Notes under the pieces: generated by a model
What the model was told of the DNA's origin: nothing
Seen by the model: the letters and a program-made list of their open reading frames with translations, nothing else
Databases searched by the model: none
DNA from: Sphyrna mokarran
Taxonomy: Eukaryota
Reading direction: 5' to 3'
NCBI GenBank assembly: GCA_024679065.1
Contig: JAGIQG010000003.1
Location: 120,342,001 to 120,406,000 of the forward strand
DNA: 64,000 nt
Shown here: positions 2,966 to 58,084 of the stretch, piece by piece
How positions within the stretch are numbered: the first letter of the stretch is position 1
Layout of the letters: the number at the start of each line of letters is the position of its first letter
Made by a program: the position numbers and the translations under genes

Positions 2966-3312
2966 ATGACAACATGGTGACAAGGTGGTTAGCACTGCTG
3001 CCTCATGGCGCCATGGATCCAGGTTTGATTCCAGCCTCGGGTGTCTGTCTGTGTGGACTTCACACATTCTCCCTGTGTCTGCATGGATTTCCTCCGGGTG
3101 CTCCAGTTTTCTCCCCCAATCCAAAGTGTGCAGGTTAGGTGGACTGGCGATGCTGAATTGACCCTTAATGTCAAGGGGATTATCAAGGCAAATATGTGGA
3201 TTATTAGGGTTAGTACATGGGCCTATGGAGATTGGACCTGGGTGGGATTGTTGTCGGTGCAGGATCAATGGGTCGAATGGCCTCCTCCTGCAGTGTAGGG
3301 ATTGTATGTATG
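2966..3312 (+). mobile_element. tRNA-derived V-SINE (HE1-like), CR1-type tail
   Basis: A box tggttagc, B box ggtttgattcc, core ggatttcctccgggtgctccagtttt, tail aatggcctcct..tgca.tgtagggatt. Confidence 0.85.
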
Positions 3313-10525: not shown

Positions 10526-11005
10526 CTGGAGATTACTAATTATTAACATGTTATTGATGAGGGAAGACTAGCTGCTTAACTGGACAGAGCAGTCGGTGTT
10601 CCAATGAGAAATCTATAGGAATAATCCCAACAAAAGCTGACAATCATAACTGTAAAGGTTTTTATTTGTAAAACAGTTCCTCATGGAATTATGAATTCAG
10701 AGATATGTGGCAGCTGTTTTATTACTTCTTAAGAATATGCTACTGATGCAATACACTTTGGTGTCTGGCAAAGAATTCATGTGTCTTTCAAAATTTGGCC
10801 AACACCATTACTTGAGGAAGTCACTGCAAGGCTGATCATTCTAATGGACAGTGAACACAATAGCCGGAATTCTCCCATCCCACCCACCACTGGAATTCTA
10901 GCAGATGGTGGGGAGGACTTTATAAAGACCCCTTGAAGTCAGGCAGGAATTTCCAGATTTCAGGCGAGCATGGCCAGAGAATTCCACCCAATGCCTTTCC
11001 TAAAA

Positions 11006-11189
11006 TATGATGTGGAGATGCCAGCATTGGACTGGGCACAGTAAGAAGTCCCATAGCACCAATCTGAAACCCAACAGGCTTATTCGATATCACAAACTTT
11101 CAGAATGCTGCTCCTTCATCAGGTGACTCATTTCATAATGCCAAATAAATCTGTTCGACTTTAACCCGGTGTTGTGAGACTTCTTACTG
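11006..11189. mobile_element. Penelope-like inverted pLTR insertion; 10-bp TSD; degenerate hammerhead on the minus strand (11090-11126)
   Basis: TSD tttcctaaaa at 10996-11005 and 11190-11199; same termini as the 56.4-57.0 kb element; UCAC-CUGAUGA-AGGAGCAGCAUUCU-GAAA-GUUU-GUGA. Confidence 0.8.
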
Positions 11190-12008
11190 TTTCCTAAAAC
11201 AAGCAGAAAGATCTGAATCTAGTTCTATCAGGCTACAGTAACTTCTTATGCCATCATGCACAATAATCAGAGAGAAGCTATGGGTTTAACATTGTTATAC
11301 TGTTTGGTTGGGTTCAACGCTTCACAAGATAACGAGTAATCCTCTGTAACTGTTCATTGATAGCATCATAATTTTGCAACAAACATGCAAGTTTCAGTGT
11401 TACTGTCCCTGGTTTCTATTCTTGGATAAACTAATTACTCTGAGCTCCATTATGCAAGAGTGGTTTGAGAACTATCCACATGTAATCTTTCAGTTTAATA
11501 ATTTTAGTAGTAGTAGATATGGGTAGAATTTTGTCTTTTAAAAAGTATAGAGGGATAATTGAGATTAGCTTAAGGGTTTAAAAAGAAAAGGATGCCATGA
11601 ATAAATTGGGCCGAAGGGCCTGTTTCCATGCAGGTTTCCATGCTGCAAACCTCTATGATCCTATGACTCTATAACTGTGCAGACTTTATGCACTGCGCCT
11701 TGGTAGCACATTACGAAATTTGGGAAGTAAAGACCCCAACACCTCTCTGACATCCTTTAAAAGAGTTTTTCTTTAACTTGGGGAAAAATGGAAATAATGG
11801 GCTGGGATCCCAGTTGTTCAATTGTTTTAAATAGATCTTGTGATACTATATTGCACAACTGCTCTTTAGAAATTTTACATGACCTTCATATACTAAATGT
11901 TATCTGCTCCAAAGTTGGTTGATTTGGAGTTGTGCACCAAAACATTCAGATTTTCAGATTTGTGCAGTTCCCATCTTACACTGCCATAGACAACACCATG
12001 AGCTTGTT

Positions 12009-12347
12009 ATAGAATCATAGAAGCCTTACAGTGCAGGAGGAGGCCTTCAGCCCATCGAGTCTGCACAAACCACAATCCCACCCAGACCCTATCCCCATAT
12101 CCCTTCATATTTACACACTCATCTCTCCAACCAATTTCAGGACTCTAAGGGGCAATTTTTAGCACGGCCAATCAACCTAACCTGCACATCTTTGAAGTGT
12201 GGGAAGAAACCGGAGTATCCAGAGGAAACCCATGCAGACATGGGGAGAATGTGTAAACTCCATGCAGACAGTGACTCCAGCTGGGAATTGAATCGAGGTC
12301 CCTGGAGCTGTGAAGCAGCAGTGCTAACCGTTGTGCCACCGTGCCGC
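12009..12347 (-). mobile_element. V-SINE, CR1-type tail; head about 60 nt from the donor of the 108-nt exon
   Basis: Full head, core and tail on the reverse strand. Confidence 0.85.
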
Positions 12348-15058: not shown

Positions 15059-15124
15059 CTGAAAACAAGCAAACAACAGCACAGCTTCGAGTAAATATAC
15101 ATGAAAAATACATAGCTTTTAAGC

Positions 15125-15433
15125 ACAGAATCCCTACAGTGTAGAATGAGGCCATTCAGCCTGTCAAGCCTGCACTGACAACAATCCCATCCAGACCTTA
15201 TCCCTGTAACCCCACATATTTACCCTGCTGGTCTCTCTCACCCTAAAGGGGCAATTTAGCATGGCCAATCAACCTAACCCGCACATCTTTAGTGTGGGGG
15301 AGGAAACTGGAGTACCAGGAGGAAACCCATGCAGATAGGGGGAGAACTCTGCACAATCACTTGAGGCTGGAATTGAACCTTGGTTCTTCACATTATGAGA
15401 CAGTAGTGCTGACCATTCTGCCACCTGTGCCCT
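15125..15433 (-). mobile_element. V-SINE, CR1-type tail; tail about 65 nt from the acceptor of the 212-nt exon
   Basis: Full head, core and tail on the reverse strand. Confidence 0.85.
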
Positions 15434-16711
15434 CCCAATATTCCCCCAATATTGCTTCCTTGGCTCAACATTCAATTTTGACTGAATGTGACTGTGAAAT
15501 GTGCCCCAAGGTCACTGAACAATGTGTGAAGTGCTACATAAAAACAGGGTATTATTATTGCAATATAGCAATTAGAATTTAACATCAGATATTTTTAATG
15601 CACCTCAAGGCATCTCAAGGATGAGCAAAGTCTCTGCCATCCTGAAGGCAAGTAACACTTGCATGGAGAAGTCTGATATCAAAATTGGGAGCGGTGGGGG
15701 TGTGGTGGAATTGTCCCATCCCGCCGTGCTAATTTTCTAGAGAGTGTGGTGGGAGAATCTCGCATCCAGGCATGAGCGGGATTCATGCGTGTGTTCCTGC
15801 TGCACACATCTCCCAGCTCCAGATTTCTGCATGTGCATAGGCACACTGATTCCAGCCTCTCCATCGTGAATAGGCCCCACACCCTGGAATGTAATAATAT
15901 TTACACTGGTGGCCTCTGCAGTGCAGAGTGTAGGAGATTCTCGTCTGAAATCCCACTGAAAAAAAAACCAGTGTGATTTACTCCAGTTCCCTCCCCTGCC
16001 CCAAATTCGACACTTAGAACATTTTTAGGAGAATTCCACCCAAGTTTTCTGGATGCACGATAAATGAGTCTGTTTCCTTACACTGCTGATGCTACATTTT
16101 TGCAGAGAATTCTATAATGGAAATATTTGGAATAAATTTGACATGACAATGCTCATTGCTAAATGAAAAACCCTGAAAAGGAAGAGAAAAAAGGAGCAAT
16201 ACCATTTTTAATTTTTTTTTGAAATGGAATGAATCCTAACTCACCAGTTATCCTCCCTGCAGCTTTCTATAACTAATAAGCTGCTTGATGTTTATTAGAT
16301 TTTCAATGATAATCAGTATTATAATGGACCTAATATCATTCTGTACAAATCATGAAAAACAAACATTACGTTTTCAGAGTAACAGACGTAAATGTTTTCA
16401 CATATTTATTACTGACCTGTAGTGCCATTTTATTTCCCAAGATAAAATGAATTATCTTATATATATCTTGCTTGAATTATATCTTGTTTGCATAGGCCAA
16501 AAATATTGTGTATATTCTGAAGCAGATTTATCTATTAAAAATCTGACTCTTAAGCCTAAGCCAAGATTTTATGGCCTTGCTCGTCCCAAAACCATAAAAT
16601 CCTGCCTGAGGTCAACGGACATTTCTATTATCCTCCTCTTGCCCGTTCTGATTCCGTAATGGGCGGGCGGTAAAATTCTAGCCTTCATCTCAACAATTTT
16701 CATTTATATGA

Positions 16712-17840
16712 TGGAAGACTTCTGCAGAAAATGCAGATATATGGGATAGAGGGTGATTTAGCTAATTGGGTTAGGATTTGGCTAGCAGGTAGAAGACAGA
16801 GGGTGGTGGTTGATGGGAGATATTCATCTTGGAGTTCAGTGACAAGTGGTGTACCTCAGGGGTCTGTTTTGGGGCCCCTACTGTTTGTAATTTTTATAAA
16901 TGATCTGGATGAGGGTATTGAAGGATGGATTAGTAAATTTGCAGATGACACTAAAGTCGGTGGAGTGGTAGATAGTGAAGAGGGGTGTTATAGTTTGCAG
17001 AGGGACTTGGACAAGTTGCAGAGCTGGGCCGAGAGGTGGCAAATGGAGTTTAATGTGGAAAAGTGTGAGGTAATGCACTATGGCAGAAATAATAAATGTG
17101 TAGAGTATAGGGCAAATGGTAGGATTCTTAGTAGTCTAGATGAACAGAGGGATCTTGGTGTGTATGTGCATAGATCCCTGAAAGTAGGCAGTCAGGTCGA
17201 GAAGGTTGTTAGGAAGGCATATGGAGTCTTGGCTTTTATTGGTAGAGGGATTGAATTTCGGAGCCGCAACGTCATGTTGCAACTGTACAAAACTCTAGTG
17301 CGGCCGCACTTGGAGTATTGTGTGCAGTTCTGGTCCCCACATTATAAGAAAGATGTGGAGGCATTGGAGAGGGTACAGAGGAGGTTTACCAGGATGTTGC
17401 CTGGTATGGAGGGCATGTCTTATGAGGAGAGGCTGAGGGATTTGAGGTTGTTTTCGTTAGAAAGGAGGAGGCTAAGAGGGGACCTGATCGAAACATATAA
17501 GATGACTAGAGGTTTAGATAGGGTGGACAGTGATAGCCTTTTTCCTAGGATGGAAAAAGCTAGCACGAGGGGACACAGCTTTAAATTAAGGGGTGATAGT
17601 TATAGGACGGATATCAGAGGCAGGTTCTTTACCCAAAGGGTGGTTAGGGAGTGGAATGCCCTGCCTGCAGCAGTTGTAGATGCGCCAAGGTTGGTGGCGT
17701 TTAAGAGGTTAGTTGATAAGTATATGGAAGAGAAGGGAATGATTTAGTTTGGAGGGGCATTGCTTTTTATATTGGTCGGCGCAACATCGAAGGCCGAAGG
17801 GCCTGTTCTGTGCTGTAATGTTCTATGTTCTATGTTCTAT
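16712..17840 (+). mobile_element. Young 5'-truncated CR1 (HER1-like) LINE with an uninterrupted RT/C-terminal ORF of 338 aa
   Basis: GVPQGSVLGPLLF, KFADD, LVRPHLEYCVQFW and LERRRLRGDL motifs with no stops; 3' UTR ending in (ttctatg)n. Confidence 0.95.
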
Positions 17841-17876
17841 ATTGTGTCTTAATCCTTTCCTGGAGTGTTATGAAGC

Positions 17877-18134
17877 CAATAAGAATTTAGCAACACCAAT
17901 TTATAATCCAACCGATTTATTTGATAGTAAAAAAGCGAGCTTTCGACTCTATGTCTTCCTCAGGCAAATGCAGTGATCTGGTCTTGAGACCAGAACACTG
18001 CATTTGCCTGAGGAAGACACAGAGTCAAAAGCTCGCTTTTTTACTATCAAATAAATCGGTTGGATTATAAATTGGTGTTGCTAAATTCTTACTGAGTTCT
18101 TACCACCCCAATCCAACGCCGGCATCTGTACATC
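17877..18134. mobile_element. Penelope-like inverted pseudo-LTR insertion with hammerhead motifs; 12-bp TSD
   Basis: TSD gtgttatgaagc at 17865-17876 and 18135-18146; inverted arms 17877-17984 and 17987-18094; terminus ...ccaacgccggcatctgtacatc resembles that of the 56.4-57.0 kb element. Confidence 0.8.
17935..17965 (-). ncRNA. Minimal type-I hammerhead ribozyme motif with intact core
   Basis: GC-CUGAGGA-A-GAC(AUAGA)GUC-GAAA-GC-UC^GC; palindromic AGCU stem III; stem I only 2 bp. Confidence 0.55.
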
Positions 18135-19978
18135 GTGTTATGAAGCAACAGTTATCACTGCAAGCAAGGCAATATCAAGCAGATGTTATAAAGTTTAATC
18201 AAAGAACAGTAGGATGTGGAGAGATCTCATTGAAACTTACAGAATAATGAAAAGCTTGGATAGAGTGAACGGGGGGAAGATGTTTCCACTAGTAGGAGAG
18301 GCGAGCCTCAGAGTAAAGGGATGATAAAGGGATGAGGAGGAATTTCTTCAGCCAGAGAGTGGCGAGTCTATAGCATTCATTACTGCAGAAGGCTGTGGAG
18401 GCAGTGTCATTGAGTGTATTTAAGATGGAAACAGATAGGTTCTCGATTGGCAAAGGGAAAATGTGGGAGACTGGGGCTGAGAAACTTATTAACCAGGATT
18501 GAATGGTGGAGCAGATTGATGGGCTGAATGGCCTATATCTTATGATTTTATGATCTTATAGTTTTATAGCCTTATGCTTTTATGGACTTATAGCTTTAAG
18601 GAACATCTTAAATGAGGAAAGAGAGATGGAGAAGTGGAGAGGTTTAAGAACATAATTTCAGGGTTAAAGGAATGGCCACCAACGGTGGAATGATTAAAAT
18701 CACTGATGCCCAGAATTAGCAGAGCACAGACATCACTGAGGGCTGTGGTATTGGAGGAGATTACAGACATCAGGAGGGGAGAGATCATGCAGGGATTTAC
18801 AAATGAGGATAAGAATTTTACAACTGGGGTTTTGCTTAATTGAGAGTCACCGACTACACAGTATGAATAAAGAAGACTTGGTGCAATTAAGAATAATGGT
18901 AGCAATGTTTTGGATAATCTCAAGCTGGTTTTTAATATTTGCAGACATTTCTCTCAACCCTCAGAAAATTGTGGAGTCATAGGGGGTGATCTTAACAGAA
19001 TTTGGTAAAGTGTCACAGTCTGACTGAAAACCGGCATGGCCAGTTTTCTCTCCAGCTCTCCTGACACACTGTCAAAAAACAGGTGGGCATGTTTCACACT
19101 GTCATATAGAGAGGCAAGGCCTAAGCACTGGCAAAGCCCAGCTGCACTAGGATCAGGCCACCATTTTTAATGGACACCCCAATCAGAGGAAATATAATTT
19201 CTTACTCTTCTCCCACTCCACCATGAGGTCTTAGGGACTCACTCCCCACCCTGATTAGAGCCAGCACCTCTTCCTCACCCATCCCTGCATCCCCCAAATC
19301 CCCTTCCCCCATCACAATCAGAACCACCATTCTCCTCCTATCCCCCCAACATTCAAAACAATCAATGCCGGCACCAGCCCCCCCTCAAACAATCATCATA
19401 GCACCCCCAGTTCCTAAGCCACTCCCCAATACCCAGCAATACATCAAAATGAATTCTTCCCCGAAAAAACTCCCACTAGGGAGTGCCTCCTGGCACAGGT
19501 TGGCACCACCAGATTGGCACTGCCCTGGCACAGATTGGCACTGTTGGCACCTGGCAGTGCAAAATTGTACTAGGAGGCAGTGCCCAGTTATGTCTTTCTC
19601 CCTCGGGGCTATACTCATCTTCATGCCCATGAGAGGATCCCACGATAGGTTCACATCTGATGAACCTGTTGTAAATCTCACTGACGTGATGTCACATTGT
19701 CAAGGTACGAAAATACGGTGAAGGGCTAATATGTGGTGGGGATATTTAATTAAATGCAAATAAATTAAAATGTATTTGGTCAGAAATGGGCTTGAAACTG
19801 ATTACATCACCAGAAAGAGTTAGCAAAAATTGTAAATTGCAATCTTGCCTGTTTCACTGGATCTTGAGAAATTTCTTCACACAGAGGGTCATAAATCACA
19901 GTTGAGGCCAAAACATTGTCCGATTTCAAGAAGAAATTAGATATAATTCTAGGAATAAATGGGATCAAGGGATATGGG

Positions 19979-20240
19979 TGGAGTTTGCATGTTCTCCTCG
20001 TGCCTGCGTGAGTTTCCTCCGCGTACTCCAGTTTCCTCACACAGCCCAAATATGTGTAGGTTAGATTGATTGGCCATGTTAAGAAATTGCCCCTTAGTGT
20101 CCAGGGATGCATGGGTTAGAGGGATTAGTGGTAATAATATGTAGGGATATGGGGGTAGGGCCTGGGTGGGATTGTGTTCAGTGCAGACTTGATGGGCCAA
20201 AGGGCCTCCTTCTGCACTGTGGGGTTCTATGAATCTGTGA
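19979..20240 (+). mobile_element. 5'-truncated V-SINE inserted into a CR1 3' end; 8-bp TSD
   Basis: gatatggg at 19971-19978 and 20241-20248; no tRNA head. Confidence 0.85.
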
Positions 20241-21702
20241 GATATGGGAGAAGGGAGGAAATCAGGATATTGAATTTGATGATCAGCCATGATCAAAATG
20301 AATGGCGGAGCAGGCTTGAAGAGATAAATGGCCTACTTCTGCTTCTCGATTCTTGTCCTGGTTCACCATTTGCCGTAGTAACCAATCTTGTATAGGTAAG
20401 TTCTTGATTGATAAGGGGATCAGAGGTTCTGGGAAAAAGGCAGGAGAATGGGGATGTGAAAAATATCAGCCATAATTCAATGATGGAGCAGACTTAATGG
20501 GCCACGTAGCCTAATTCTGCTGCTGTATCTAATGGTCTTGTTGTTATCTAATAAAGCATCTAATGTTGGGTGCCTTTAGCTAGACTTGCCTTTGCATGTT
20601 TAAGTTTCTACACTTCATTCACTGATTGAAAGTATGAGCTGACAATGTCACAGTAAGGACGACAGGTCATCAAGGACCTGGATTAATAGACAATGAACGA
20701 TGTATTACCTTAACAAATTAGATTGAAAGATTGTGAAATTAACAGCACAGAGACTGAGGAGAAAGTCTACACACACTGGGTAAATTCAGTGTCAAATCAA
20801 GTGCAGAAAGTGAAATGGAGAGAGAGAGAAAAGATTGGATTGAGAGAAACGAAAATGGATTTTATTTATCGTGTTATAGTAAATCTTTAACAACAGTTAA
20901 GTGAGATTTCACACTTGAAATAGTTAATTTGTGATGTCAGATTGCTTAGGAGGAGATAGCACAGATCACGTTATTTAAAAGGTGCTTAATCTGAAATTGA
21001 AAACGCTTAACTTCCTGTAGTGTGCTCTGTTCTGACTGACCTTGGAAATACAGCAACTCCATATCATTCAATGCAGCAAGGTGCCACTGTTTTGGATATT
21101 TGATTGCACATTTGCCCCTGTGCTGAAGTTGCTGCACAATCCACTCCCAAATAGCGGTGATCACCATTAGCCATACCATTATTTTGGCAGGAAATCATGG
21201 TCCAGTTTACACTAATTTAAATGGGCTTGCATATGACTTGTAGACAAAGTCTTTCCTCATTGTGACAAACAGGATGAATAGTCCTTACTTTTCACAGTTA
21301 AAAGCAATCTGCCAAGTGTTTTTCCCAAGAAGTTGATGTCTCTCTTTCCCGTGTTTTAAAACCTAATGTTGTAAATTAAGCTTTATCTCAGTCACCTGAA
21401 ATGCATTTTATGCTGATGTGATCAGGTAGTAAGTACAAGCACAAAATACAATCCGAACAAACCTACTCAAAACATGGTTCAGAATGACTATTCTAAAATA
21501 CTGAATCTCTCAAGAATAGCAGTGATGAAAACCCACATTGAAAATCGTGGATGCTTGAGAAACGCAACGGGTCAGGAAATGTCAGCAGGGACCCGTAATG
21601 GGAGTGTAACACAGACTGCCACAAATCCATCCCATGAAGTATACCAAAAAGCAGAAGGGAAAATCTCCCACTTTCACATTGGGGAACTTTTTTTAACGTT
21701 TA

Positions 21703-22005
21703 TATTTATTAAATGTCACAAGTAGGCTTCCATTAACACTGCAATTAAATTATTGTGAAAATTCCCGAGTTTCCACACTCCGGCACCTATTCAGATACAC
21801 TGAGGGAGAATTTAGTATGACCAACGTACCTAACCAGCTCATCTTTTGGACTGTGGGAGGAAACAGGATCAGCCAAAGGAAACCCATGCAAACACAGGGA
21901 GAATGTGCAGACTCCACACAGATAGTGACCCAAGCCGGGAATCAAACACAGGTCCCCAGCGCTGTGAGGTGGTAGTGCTAACCACTGTGTCATTGTGCTG
22001 CCCTG
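21703..22005 (-). mobile_element. V-SINE, alternative-tail subfamily
   Basis: gtcacaagtaggcttccattaacactgca tail plus core and head. Confidence 0.85.
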
Positions 22006-22243
22006 TGCCATTTCTTTCTGGGAAAATCATCCCTGTATTTGTGGGTTTTTTTAAATTAATTAAAAGGCTTACACAAAACTGACTATAAAAACAAAATAAT
22101 ATACATGTACAAATGAAAGAGCATTTCACAAGTGCTCTGACAATTTGCATGCATGAAGACGTCCATTTGAGCAGAACAGGTTTGTTTTTCCTAATAAAAT
22201 AGAAGTATTATCTTGTTAGCAGCACAGATACTGTGTAACATAC

Positions 22244-49007: not shown

Positions 49008-49326
49008 ATCATGGTGGTACAGTTAGCACTGCTGCCTCACTGTGCCAGCGACCTGGGTTCAATCCTGGCCTCGGGTCATTGTTGCTGCGGAGTTTGCATA
49101 TTCTCCCTGTGTCAGCATGGGTTTCCTCCAGGTGTTCCGGTTTCCTCCCACAGTCCAAAAATGTGAGGGTTAGGTGAAATGGCCATACTACATTGCCCCT
49201 TAGTATCAGGACTCTAGCTAAGGTAAATGCCTGGGGTTGTGGGGATAGGGCCTGGGTGGGATTGTGCTTGATGCAGACTTGATGGACCAAATAACCTCCT
49301 TCTGCATTGTAGGATTCTATGATTCT
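49008..49326 (+). mobile_element. V-SINE, CR1-type tail
   Basis: Head, core and gattctatgattct tail. Confidence 0.85.
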
Positions 49327-56270: not shown

Positions 56271-56368
56271 CTGTATCAAACAAAGCACATTAGAAAGAAC
56301 AAAACGAGCCTCCTACCCTCGTCATTAACAGAGCAAATCCCTCTGCCCTTCCAAGCACCAACTACATA

Positions 56369-57045
56369 CAGTAAGAGGTCTCAAAACACCAGGTTAAAAT
56401 CCAACAGATTTATTTAAAATCATGAGCTTTAGCAGTGCTGCTCCTTATTCAGGCGAGTGGCAGGGGGTGGGGGTAGGTTCACAAATAAAGCATATATAGG
56501 CAAAGACAATAGCCAGGTAAGAGTGTTCCCTTTCCGCTGGGGAACAGTTCAGCAGTCAAGAGCATCCAGTGTCCTATCTTCAGGTAAAACATTCTCCAAG
56601 ACACATGACAACGCAGAATCAGTGAGCACAAACTGATAGTCAAGTTCGGCATACGAGGATGGCCTCAACCAAGACCTTGGGTTCATGTCACACCACATGA
56701 AACCCCCACTATTCCGCCTGGTCTTGCAAAATCCTTCTAACTGCCCTGTCTTGAGACAATTCATACCTCTTTAAACTGTAGTTATCCCTCTCTCCACTTG
56801 TACTGTCTGTACCTGTAAAAACTCACATTCCCACCATTCTCCACATTCCCATCTGTAATTATCTTGCAACGGTGTCTTTGCCTATATATGCCATGTTTGT
56901 GGACGTACCGTTCCACTCACCTGATGAAGGAGCAGCACTCCAAAAGCTCGTGACTCCAAATAAACCTGTTGGACTTTAACCTGGTGTTGTGAGGCTCCTT
57001 ACTGTGCCCACCCCACTCCAATGTCGGCATCTCCACATCAATGCT
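56369..57045 (+). mobile_element. 5'-truncated Penelope-like element: inverted pLTR, GIY-YIG C-terminal relic, pLTR; 9-bp TSD
   Basis: TSD aactacata at 56360-56368 and 57046-57054; degenerate ...QRRISEHKLIVKFG..EDGLNQDLGFMSH at about 56530-56700; UCAC-CUGAUGA-AGGAGCAGCACUCC-AAAA-GCUC-GUGA at 56917-56953 (GAAA mutated). Confidence 0.85.
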
Positions 57046-58084
57046 AACTACATATGGCAGCAACTTGTGCTGGAAATAAGAATTCAGTTTTTATTGATCA
57101 TCCGTGACCTCCAGCACCTTAGAGCAACTCCAGCGATCTTTTTAAACAAAACACAAACAAGAGTAATGATCAAAACAAAAGTATAAGTTCGGAGGGGAAA
57201 ATCTAATTAAAAATTAAATTAGGTCTCCAAACCCATTGGCAAAATAACCTCCAGACTAATCACTGTCTACAATGGCATGCAACAGCAAAGAAAAGGTAAA
57301 TAATTTGACCCTCAGCAGAATAATTGCACGGTTACTGAGAAAGAACTTGAATAATAAGCATTACGTTGTAAACATTATTATACATCCCTTGCAGATTACT
57401 TCAAAAATCATTGTAATCTTCAGAGCACTTTTCAAACCAATAAATGTTAAATATACAAAAGCCTCATGGGGAAAATCAGATGGATTACATTCAATCTGAT
57501 AACGCTTAATGGCCTCCATTCAATTCTAAATTTCCACTGGAAACTTGCATTGTATTTTTTTCAAATTTCAAACCTTTCATGGCTTAGTACGAGCCAAATT
57601 ATCAACATTTAGACCTTAAGAATGATTTTCCAAGCACTTGTCCCATCATTTGGTAAACAGCACATTACTCTGACTGAGAAGCTTTGCCTAATCCCAAATG
57701 GCAGTTTGCTTTTGTATTTATTTTCTGGTCATTGTGAAGGACAAATACAAGAATTCTCAAGTGGCACAAGGAGTTTAAGAGGTTGGGAAAGATAAATGAG
57801 AAGGTTAGCAACTGACTTTTCAACTGCTTCATCATTTACATCACACAGTTGAAATAAATATAAACGGCAAAGAAATAATACAATGCATGTTCCTATCTCT
57901 CACTGTTTTTGTATCTATTTATATATATAAAATAGCAAGTGGATCATTGTGTTTTATCTCGAGGTTATCTGGCCACCCAGTTGAAAAATCCATATTCACC
58001 TCATCTGCATTCAGGTGATAGATGATTGGCATTTGCAATGCAAATCACTGACACAGAAACGTTAAGGAAGGTGGCTTAGCGCAG

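Follow-up and report, generated by a model that had tools for sequence, protein, structure and literature searches.

A 258-bp insertion, measured between its target-site duplications (TSDs), lies within an intron of a gene for a plasma-membrane Ca2+-ATPase (PMCA), encoded on the minus strand of the window, the 64,000-nt stretch of DNA analysed here. The intron, delimited by exon frames and splice sites, is approximately 7.2 kb in length and separates exons that join in frame, and the downstream PMCA exons match Pfam families PF00689 and PF12424 on the minus strand. The insertion is located approximately 2.8 kb from the 3′ splice site and 4.1 kb from the 5′ splice site of this intron, and consists of two arms of 108 nt, a loop and a tail. 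The features of the insertion, its host intron and two related copies are as follows:

15059-22243, minus strand: host intron of the PMCA gene, assigned from exon frames, splice sites and Pfam matches
17865-17876, plus strand: left copy of the 12-bp TSD, repeated exactly at 18135-18146
17877-17984, minus strand: tail-less inverted arm of 108 nt (5′-truncated copy of the pseudo-LTR, pLTR), sense in the host pre-mRNA
17935-17965, minus strand: minimal type-I hammerhead motif with a complete core (motif as defined in the accessible text of PMC4209133)
17985-17986, no strand: 2-nt spacer TG at the head-to-head junction; other copies differ here by 3, 7 or 8 nt
17987-18094, plus strand: tail-bearing arm of 108 nt, from the comparison of arms
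18006-18036, plus strand: second hammerhead motif with the same short stems and an A in place of G12 at 18027
18059-18117, plus strand: predicted 3′ stem (18059-18066 with 18110-18117), from fold prediction
18095-18134, plus strand: 40-nt tail on one side only, with homologous tails in the 11-kb and 56-kb copies
18135-18146, plus strand: right copy of the TSD, an exact repeat of 17865-17876
10996-11201, tail arm on the minus strand and short inverted arm on the plus strand: older sister-family copy at 11 kb, with CTTACTG ends and a 12-bp TSD with one mismatch
56355-57054, tail on the plus-strand arm: older sister-family copy at 56 kb, with 141-bp inverted arms and a decayed interior

The arms are reverse complements with exactly four mismatches in 108 pairs (17879/18092, 17944/18027, 17951/18020 and 17976/17995), three of which are transitions, corresponding to an arm divergence of 3.7% (95% interval 1.0-9.2%). 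The near-perfect 218-nt hairpin of the initial annotation, with about four mismatches, a 2-nt loop and a 40-nt tail, is thus exact. This palindrome (17877-18094) is the single hairpin in the window with a spacer of 0-12 nt and a score of at least 14, and its folding z-score is −28, with none of 200 shuffles folding as well. The 12-bp TSD is duplicated exactly, as first described; the first base past either end differs, and a search of both strands found the 12-mer nowhere else in the window. The tail contains 26 A or C letters out of 40 (65% A+C). The predicted 3′ stem encloses a smaller stem-loop, the loop of which ends at the tail boundary. Across the three tail-bearing arms in the window 23 of 24 cells of this stem are paired, with no compensatory change among the three, and shuffled sequences were not beaten (337/500).

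The target DNA at 17861-17876 resembles the start of the tail (18095-18110), with 11 of 16 places alike and in register, a likeness equalled at 40 of 127,920 window positions. The two terminal bases mismatch and the likeness is absent from both sister copies; it may be due to chance, a self-like target or pairing of primer and template.

BLAST and nhmmer searches identified the two older related insertions in the window (11.0-11.2 kb and 56.4-57.0 kb). In each, a tail-bearing arm is accompanied by an inverted arm that lacks the tail, and the two arms are unequal in the 11-kb copy. The TSD of the 56-kb copy consists of 9 exact (about 14 diverged) bp, and its arms are 78.7% identical to each other. 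Pfam and two homologue searches of its interior returned no match, and decayed frames in this region (56369-57040) bear a possible resemblance to the C-terminus of the endonuclease of a Penelope-like element (PLE). The tail-less arm of all three window copies ends at the same base of a CTTA(C/T)TG boundary against the TSD, as seen for the arm at 17877-17984, while upstream extents vary. An alignment of the intron insertion arm with the 56-kb arm contains 94 identities in 132 columns, stems I and II of the hammerhead differ, and the intron insertion has its own contigs in public sequencing data, in agreement with its earlier assignment to a different family than the copies at 11 kb and 56 kb. 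The divergence of 3.7% between its arms, against 78.7% identity between those at 56 kb, suggests that it is younger than the 56-kb copy, in line with the recent insertion that had been proposed, or that its arms were homogenised.

The insertion is very probably derived from a PLE and is likely a non-coding stub of such a retrotransposon. The features expected of EN+ PLEs that were found here include an inverted 5′-truncated pLTR copy joined head to head, a one-sided tail, a short TSD, a hammerhead in the pLTR, and an interspersed, multi-copy family. The accessible portions of PMC3846280 and PMC8557442 describe PLE insertions with an inverted 5′-truncated pLTR, an optional 30-40-bp tail at one end and a TSD of 8-10 bp, and the complex insertions of EN+ PLEs share with this one the head-to-head inverted copy and the palindrome at the junction. 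The tail of 40 nt compares with 31 bp in a rotifer example and 30-40 bp for PLEs in general, and the TSD of 12 bp with 8-10 bp. Unlike those complex insertions, two pLTR ends alone remain here, with no ORF and no adjoining sequence for a reverse transcriptase (RT) or endonuclease. The annotated PLE-type layout of inverted pLTR, tail and TSD fits one that is already published, and the insertion is mostly ordinary.

A further group of elements was considered. Animal non-LTR retrozymes are described in the available text of bioRxiv 10.64898/2026.07.22.740005 as non-autonomous, hammerhead-bearing and related to PLE pLTRs, and are reported there in one chondrichthyan sampled. These elements form head-to-tail tandem arrays, whereas the insertion here is one head-to-head pair, and the assignment was rejected as no head-to-tail tandem units are present.

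Both arms carry a hammerhead motif with the palindrome AGCU as stem III. The minus arm, in gene sense, reads CUGAGGA-A-stem II-GAAA-GCUC and holds the full core set (C3 U4 G5 A6 N7 G8 A9, G12 A13 A14 A15.1, U16.1 and H17), with C3 at 17963, the extra A at 17956, G12 at 17944 and the palindrome at 17941-17938; the predicted site of cleavage would follow 17937. According to the parts of PMC4209133 available, minimal PLE hammerheads have an unpaired base before stem II and a palindromic, loop-less stem III, and the motif here shares these features along with CUGANGA and GAAA. That source also noted, in 2014, pairs of minimal hammerheads on opposite strands 100-700 bp apart. The GAAA is kept on the minus arm alone, as annotated. 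The A at 18027 on the plus arm is likely the result of decay, since G12 is common in the family contigs and 18027 lies opposite a CpG in the other arm.

The description of the hammerhead as intact holds for the core letters of the gene-sense arm and fails for the stems. In both arms stem I comprises 2 bp, beyond which lie three U-U mismatches, and stem II comprises 3 bp, compared with a helix I of 4-5 bp and a long helix II expected of a minimal type-I hammerhead. The S. mansoni consensus has 4-5 bp in helix I and 7-8 bp in helix II, and D. virilis PLE hammerheads have 2 bp and 6 bp (PMC4209133, accessible text). The short stem I is by itself no proof of inactivity, as a 2-bp helix I is known in D. 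virilis, there with a 6-bp helix II. Compared with the family contigs, most of stem I is missing from both arms, which leaves the reading of an intact ribozyme unsupported. Three Rfam matches were obtained at E values up to 1, all scoring far below the gathering thresholds and none of them to a hammerhead.

The family was compared as contigs in four of five candidate public sequencing runs, which come from three studies under three organism labels (A, B and C), of which run X1 is possibly the window's own sample; contig depth in these runs does not equal copy number. The family is present in all four. G at 18027 (G12) accounts for 35, 88, 33 and 64% of summed depth in the four runs, and 1-2-letter insertions at 17951-17952 give other copies a longer stem II. 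The same types of change recur across the four runs, including X2, which is possibly RNA, and so reflect family variation rather than editing. Contigs that match as far as 18025 continue with A-rich sequence (69 contigs in X1 and 5 in X3), and this A-rich strand can form 6 bp with the 5′ strand of stem I, at a place occupied by T in both intron arms. At 18038 the other letters listed make up 69, 72, 100 and 100% of depth, with sister families mixed in, leaving about 30% of the depth in two organism-A runs that these letters do not cover. Runs of organisms B and C lack the T at 18038 that goes with the short stem I. This shortened stem may be the mark of an organism-A subfamily, perhaps one that spread in a single lineage with a weak ribozyme, rather than a decayed copy. 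Exact and degenerate patterns found no match in metagenome contigs, viral contigs or prokaryotic genomes, as expected for an animal repeat.

Considered as a whole, the account of a PLE stub produced by two-ended target-primed reverse transcription, with a ribozyme that is inactive here, is probable. On the narrower matter of how the mirror arms arose, we lean slightly towards two-ended priming rather than fold-back. In the proposed mechanism a GIY-YIG endonuclease would nick the two target strands 12 nt apart. One of the resulting 3′ ends would prime cDNA synthesis at an outer start site on the RNA, at 18134, so that the tail is included, and the other at an inner start site at 18094, so that the tail is excluded. 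Both cDNAs would end near 17987 and be joined head to head, fill-in would create the TSD, and four later substitutions would have separated the arms. Two-ended priming explains the TSD, the presence of a tail on one side, the constant endpoint of the short arm, the difference in arm length within the 11-kb copy and the loop-less joints in other copies. The titles and abstract openings surveyed, from a literature exclusive of repeat libraries and most subscription papers, contained no account of two-ended priming in PLEs, nor of this family in sharks.

A precedent is provided by the Poseidon element of Anolis carolinensis. In the accessible text of PMC11167929, its protein cuts and extends both target strands in vitro, two RT start sites on the RNA bracket a tail in an AC-rich stem-loop, and ribozyme cleavage is dispensable for insertion in vitro. 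The present insertion is comparable in having a tail of 65% A+C with its boundary at a predicted loop; that text states no model for inverted arms.

The most viable alternative, possible though doubtful, accepts the same PLE origin and ascribes the mirror arm to self-priming, in which one nucleic-acid strand folds back at its end and is copied on itself until it reaches the tail boundary. This is the simpler fit to the exact symmetry of the copy, as both arms begin at the same base around the 2-nt spacer, and palindromes at inverted PLE junctions are read in this manner, on an antisense template, in the portion of PMC3846280 available. The shortened stems I and II shared by both arms also follow directly from self-priming; under two-ended priming they must have been present in the template beforehand, unless homogenisation of the arms took place afterwards. 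Self-priming alone leaves unexplained the fixed end of the tail-less arm in three of three window copies, the unequal arms at 11 kb, and the joints of other copies. Among the joints listed, a loop-less palindromic joint links 17931 to 18040 (11 contigs in X1 and 3 in X3), which suits the annealing of two cDNA ends better than the fold-back of a single strand, and an unequal joint links 17931 to 17990. The formation of inverted PLE structures is called undefined in the accessible text of PMC8557442.

It is unlikely that the insertion belongs instead to a non-autonomous family that was already palindromic and was re-inserted whole after transcription, its centre eroded by small deletions. Nearly the same centre is crossed, among the rows listed, by 15 contigs in two runs (12 in X1 and 3 in X3, with 3, 7 or 8 letters left out), as such a master copy would predict, and the organism-A runs may hold a short-stem-I subfamily. 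Against it, these centres differ by 3-8 nt, other joints listed lie about 50 nt from the centre of this copy, and RT would need to traverse a duplex of 108 bp. All of these junction counts rest on the rows listed, namely 15 of 204 joints, 12 of 28 gap rows and 12 of 88 filler rows.

The positions of the junctions in other copies raise a more speculative reading of the two-ended model. Six of the 15 joints listed (of 204) and nine of the 12 short-filler joints listed (of 88, with fillers of 1-13 nt) link 17923-17933 to 18040-18049, a cluster that coincides with a short AT palindrome and, as seen in the listed rows, is possibly an alignment effect; this copy differs from its relatives just upstream, so that the alignments of relatives must start near 18040. 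These head-to-head joints fall within about 13 nt of the predicted cut (18034/18035), and one filler starts where a cut product of the sister type would start. Head-to-head junctions of this high-copy family could mark where the RNA templates had their 5′ ends, with one class at about 17987-17990 left by uncut RNA, to which the present insertion with a collapsed stem I would belong, and another near 18034/18035 by cleaved RNA, a suggestion that is tentative and rather improbable. If true, the endpoints of many insertions in vivo are determined by ribozyme cleavage, and thousands of palindromes would become a genomic read-out of both two-ended priming and the purpose of PLE hammerheads. More generally, this class of insertion offers a convenient minimal record of PLE integration, and genome-wide junction counts could test how inverted arms form and what role the ribozyme plays.

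In the host transcript the antisense arm would be made first, as had been annotated, given that the PMCA gene lies on the minus strand; the sense arm would then zip into a 108-bp duplex with it and block the hammerhead fold. Fold prediction is consistent with the earlier claim that the motif is locked in this duplex. At predicted equilibrium each base from 17931 to 17963 is unpaired less than 0.4% of the time in the full element (core more than 99.6% paired), and a hammerhead-competent fold would cost 65.9 kcal/mol, while the antisense arm alone is predicted to fold weakly (−29.6 kcal/mol over 160 nt). The motif is therefore predicted to be both weakened and locked in the hairpin, and on these models the ribozyme is with high confidence silent at the PMCA intron locus. 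On the gene-sense strand three of the four mismatches (17879, 17944, 17951 and 17976) are G-U pairs, an outcome with a chance of 1 in 8, and the duplex of this strand is predicted to be 16 kcal/mol more stable than that of the other strand.

According to the accessible parts of PMC5625713 and PMC10636886, Penelope elements undergo massive editing in a lizard and are the most targeted in X. tropicalis, while the most edited repeat in the frog is a palindromic one of 200 bp. The insertion is likewise a self-folding repeat of about 200 nt within a transcript. As Penelope and palindromic repeats are reported to be heavily edited, ADAR editing would be expected, and it is plausible that the hairpin serves as an ordinary ADAR substrate. 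The locus itself carries little weight, being one among many repeat-derived duplexes in a long pre-mRNA. An AATAAA motif is present in each arm (17921 on the minus strand and 18050 on the plus strand), with the gene-sense one predicted to lie hidden within the duplex.

An active gene-sense hammerhead, or a hairpin co-opted as a regulator of PMCA splicing or stability, is very unlikely, although the complete core letters of the gene-sense arm and the bias of its mismatches towards G-U would both suit a retained function. The stems have 2 and 3 bp and the motif would need a dimer partner; in the available text of PMC4209133 a minimal motif on its own does not cleave in vitro and dimers cleave at a low level. 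The predicted barrier of 66 kcal/mol and the distances of 2.8-4.1 kb to the splice sites also speak against it.

More improbable still is a fold-back artefact of assembly or library preparation. No contig among those listed spans the junctions of this copy or an empty site, and inverted PLE structures are said to trouble short-read assemblies in the accessible portion of PMC8557442. Such an artefact is hard to reconcile with four differences between the arms, three of them transitions, with the one-sided tail and exact TSD, and with like junctions in two runs. The 15 of 204 joints listed include no empty-site joint from X1, in which cover at 18158-18180 is slight, and two X1 contigs (18226-18354 and 18340-18450) are identical to the right flank.

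The least probable origin is a MITE (a derivative of a DNA transposon) or a microRNA precursor, to which the short, palindromic, TSD-flanked form and a weak mir-553 match at the hairpin tip could point, and with which the asymmetric ends, the hammerhead inside and the unequal arms among sister copies disagree. The inverted repeats of a MITE lie at both termini, against the TSD, and this candidate was rejected as the 40-nt tail separates the right arm from the TSD here. The mir-553 precursor (RF00979) was likewise rejected, with matches of 31.8 and 29.2 bits against a gathering score of 82.

Several other repeats surround the insertion, and the general character of the SINEs and LINEs in the window points to a cartilaginous fish as the probable host. 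A 5′-truncated LINE at 16674-17834, with an open frame of 357 aa (RVT_1) and short tandem 3′ repeats, ends 30 bases before it; a TSD was looked for around this LINE and none was found. The 3′ end of the LINE has inverted partners at 34.4 kb and 37.7-38.0 kb, 17-20 kb away and 91-98% complementary. The right flank (18204-18450) is an older, decayed LINE fragment to which many family contigs align at 80-90%. A SINE family with a tRNA-like head, represented by approximately 15-20 copies on both strands of the PMCA introns (e.g., 2976-3121, 12158-12345 and 49010-49310), is a further source of duplexes in the pre-mRNA.
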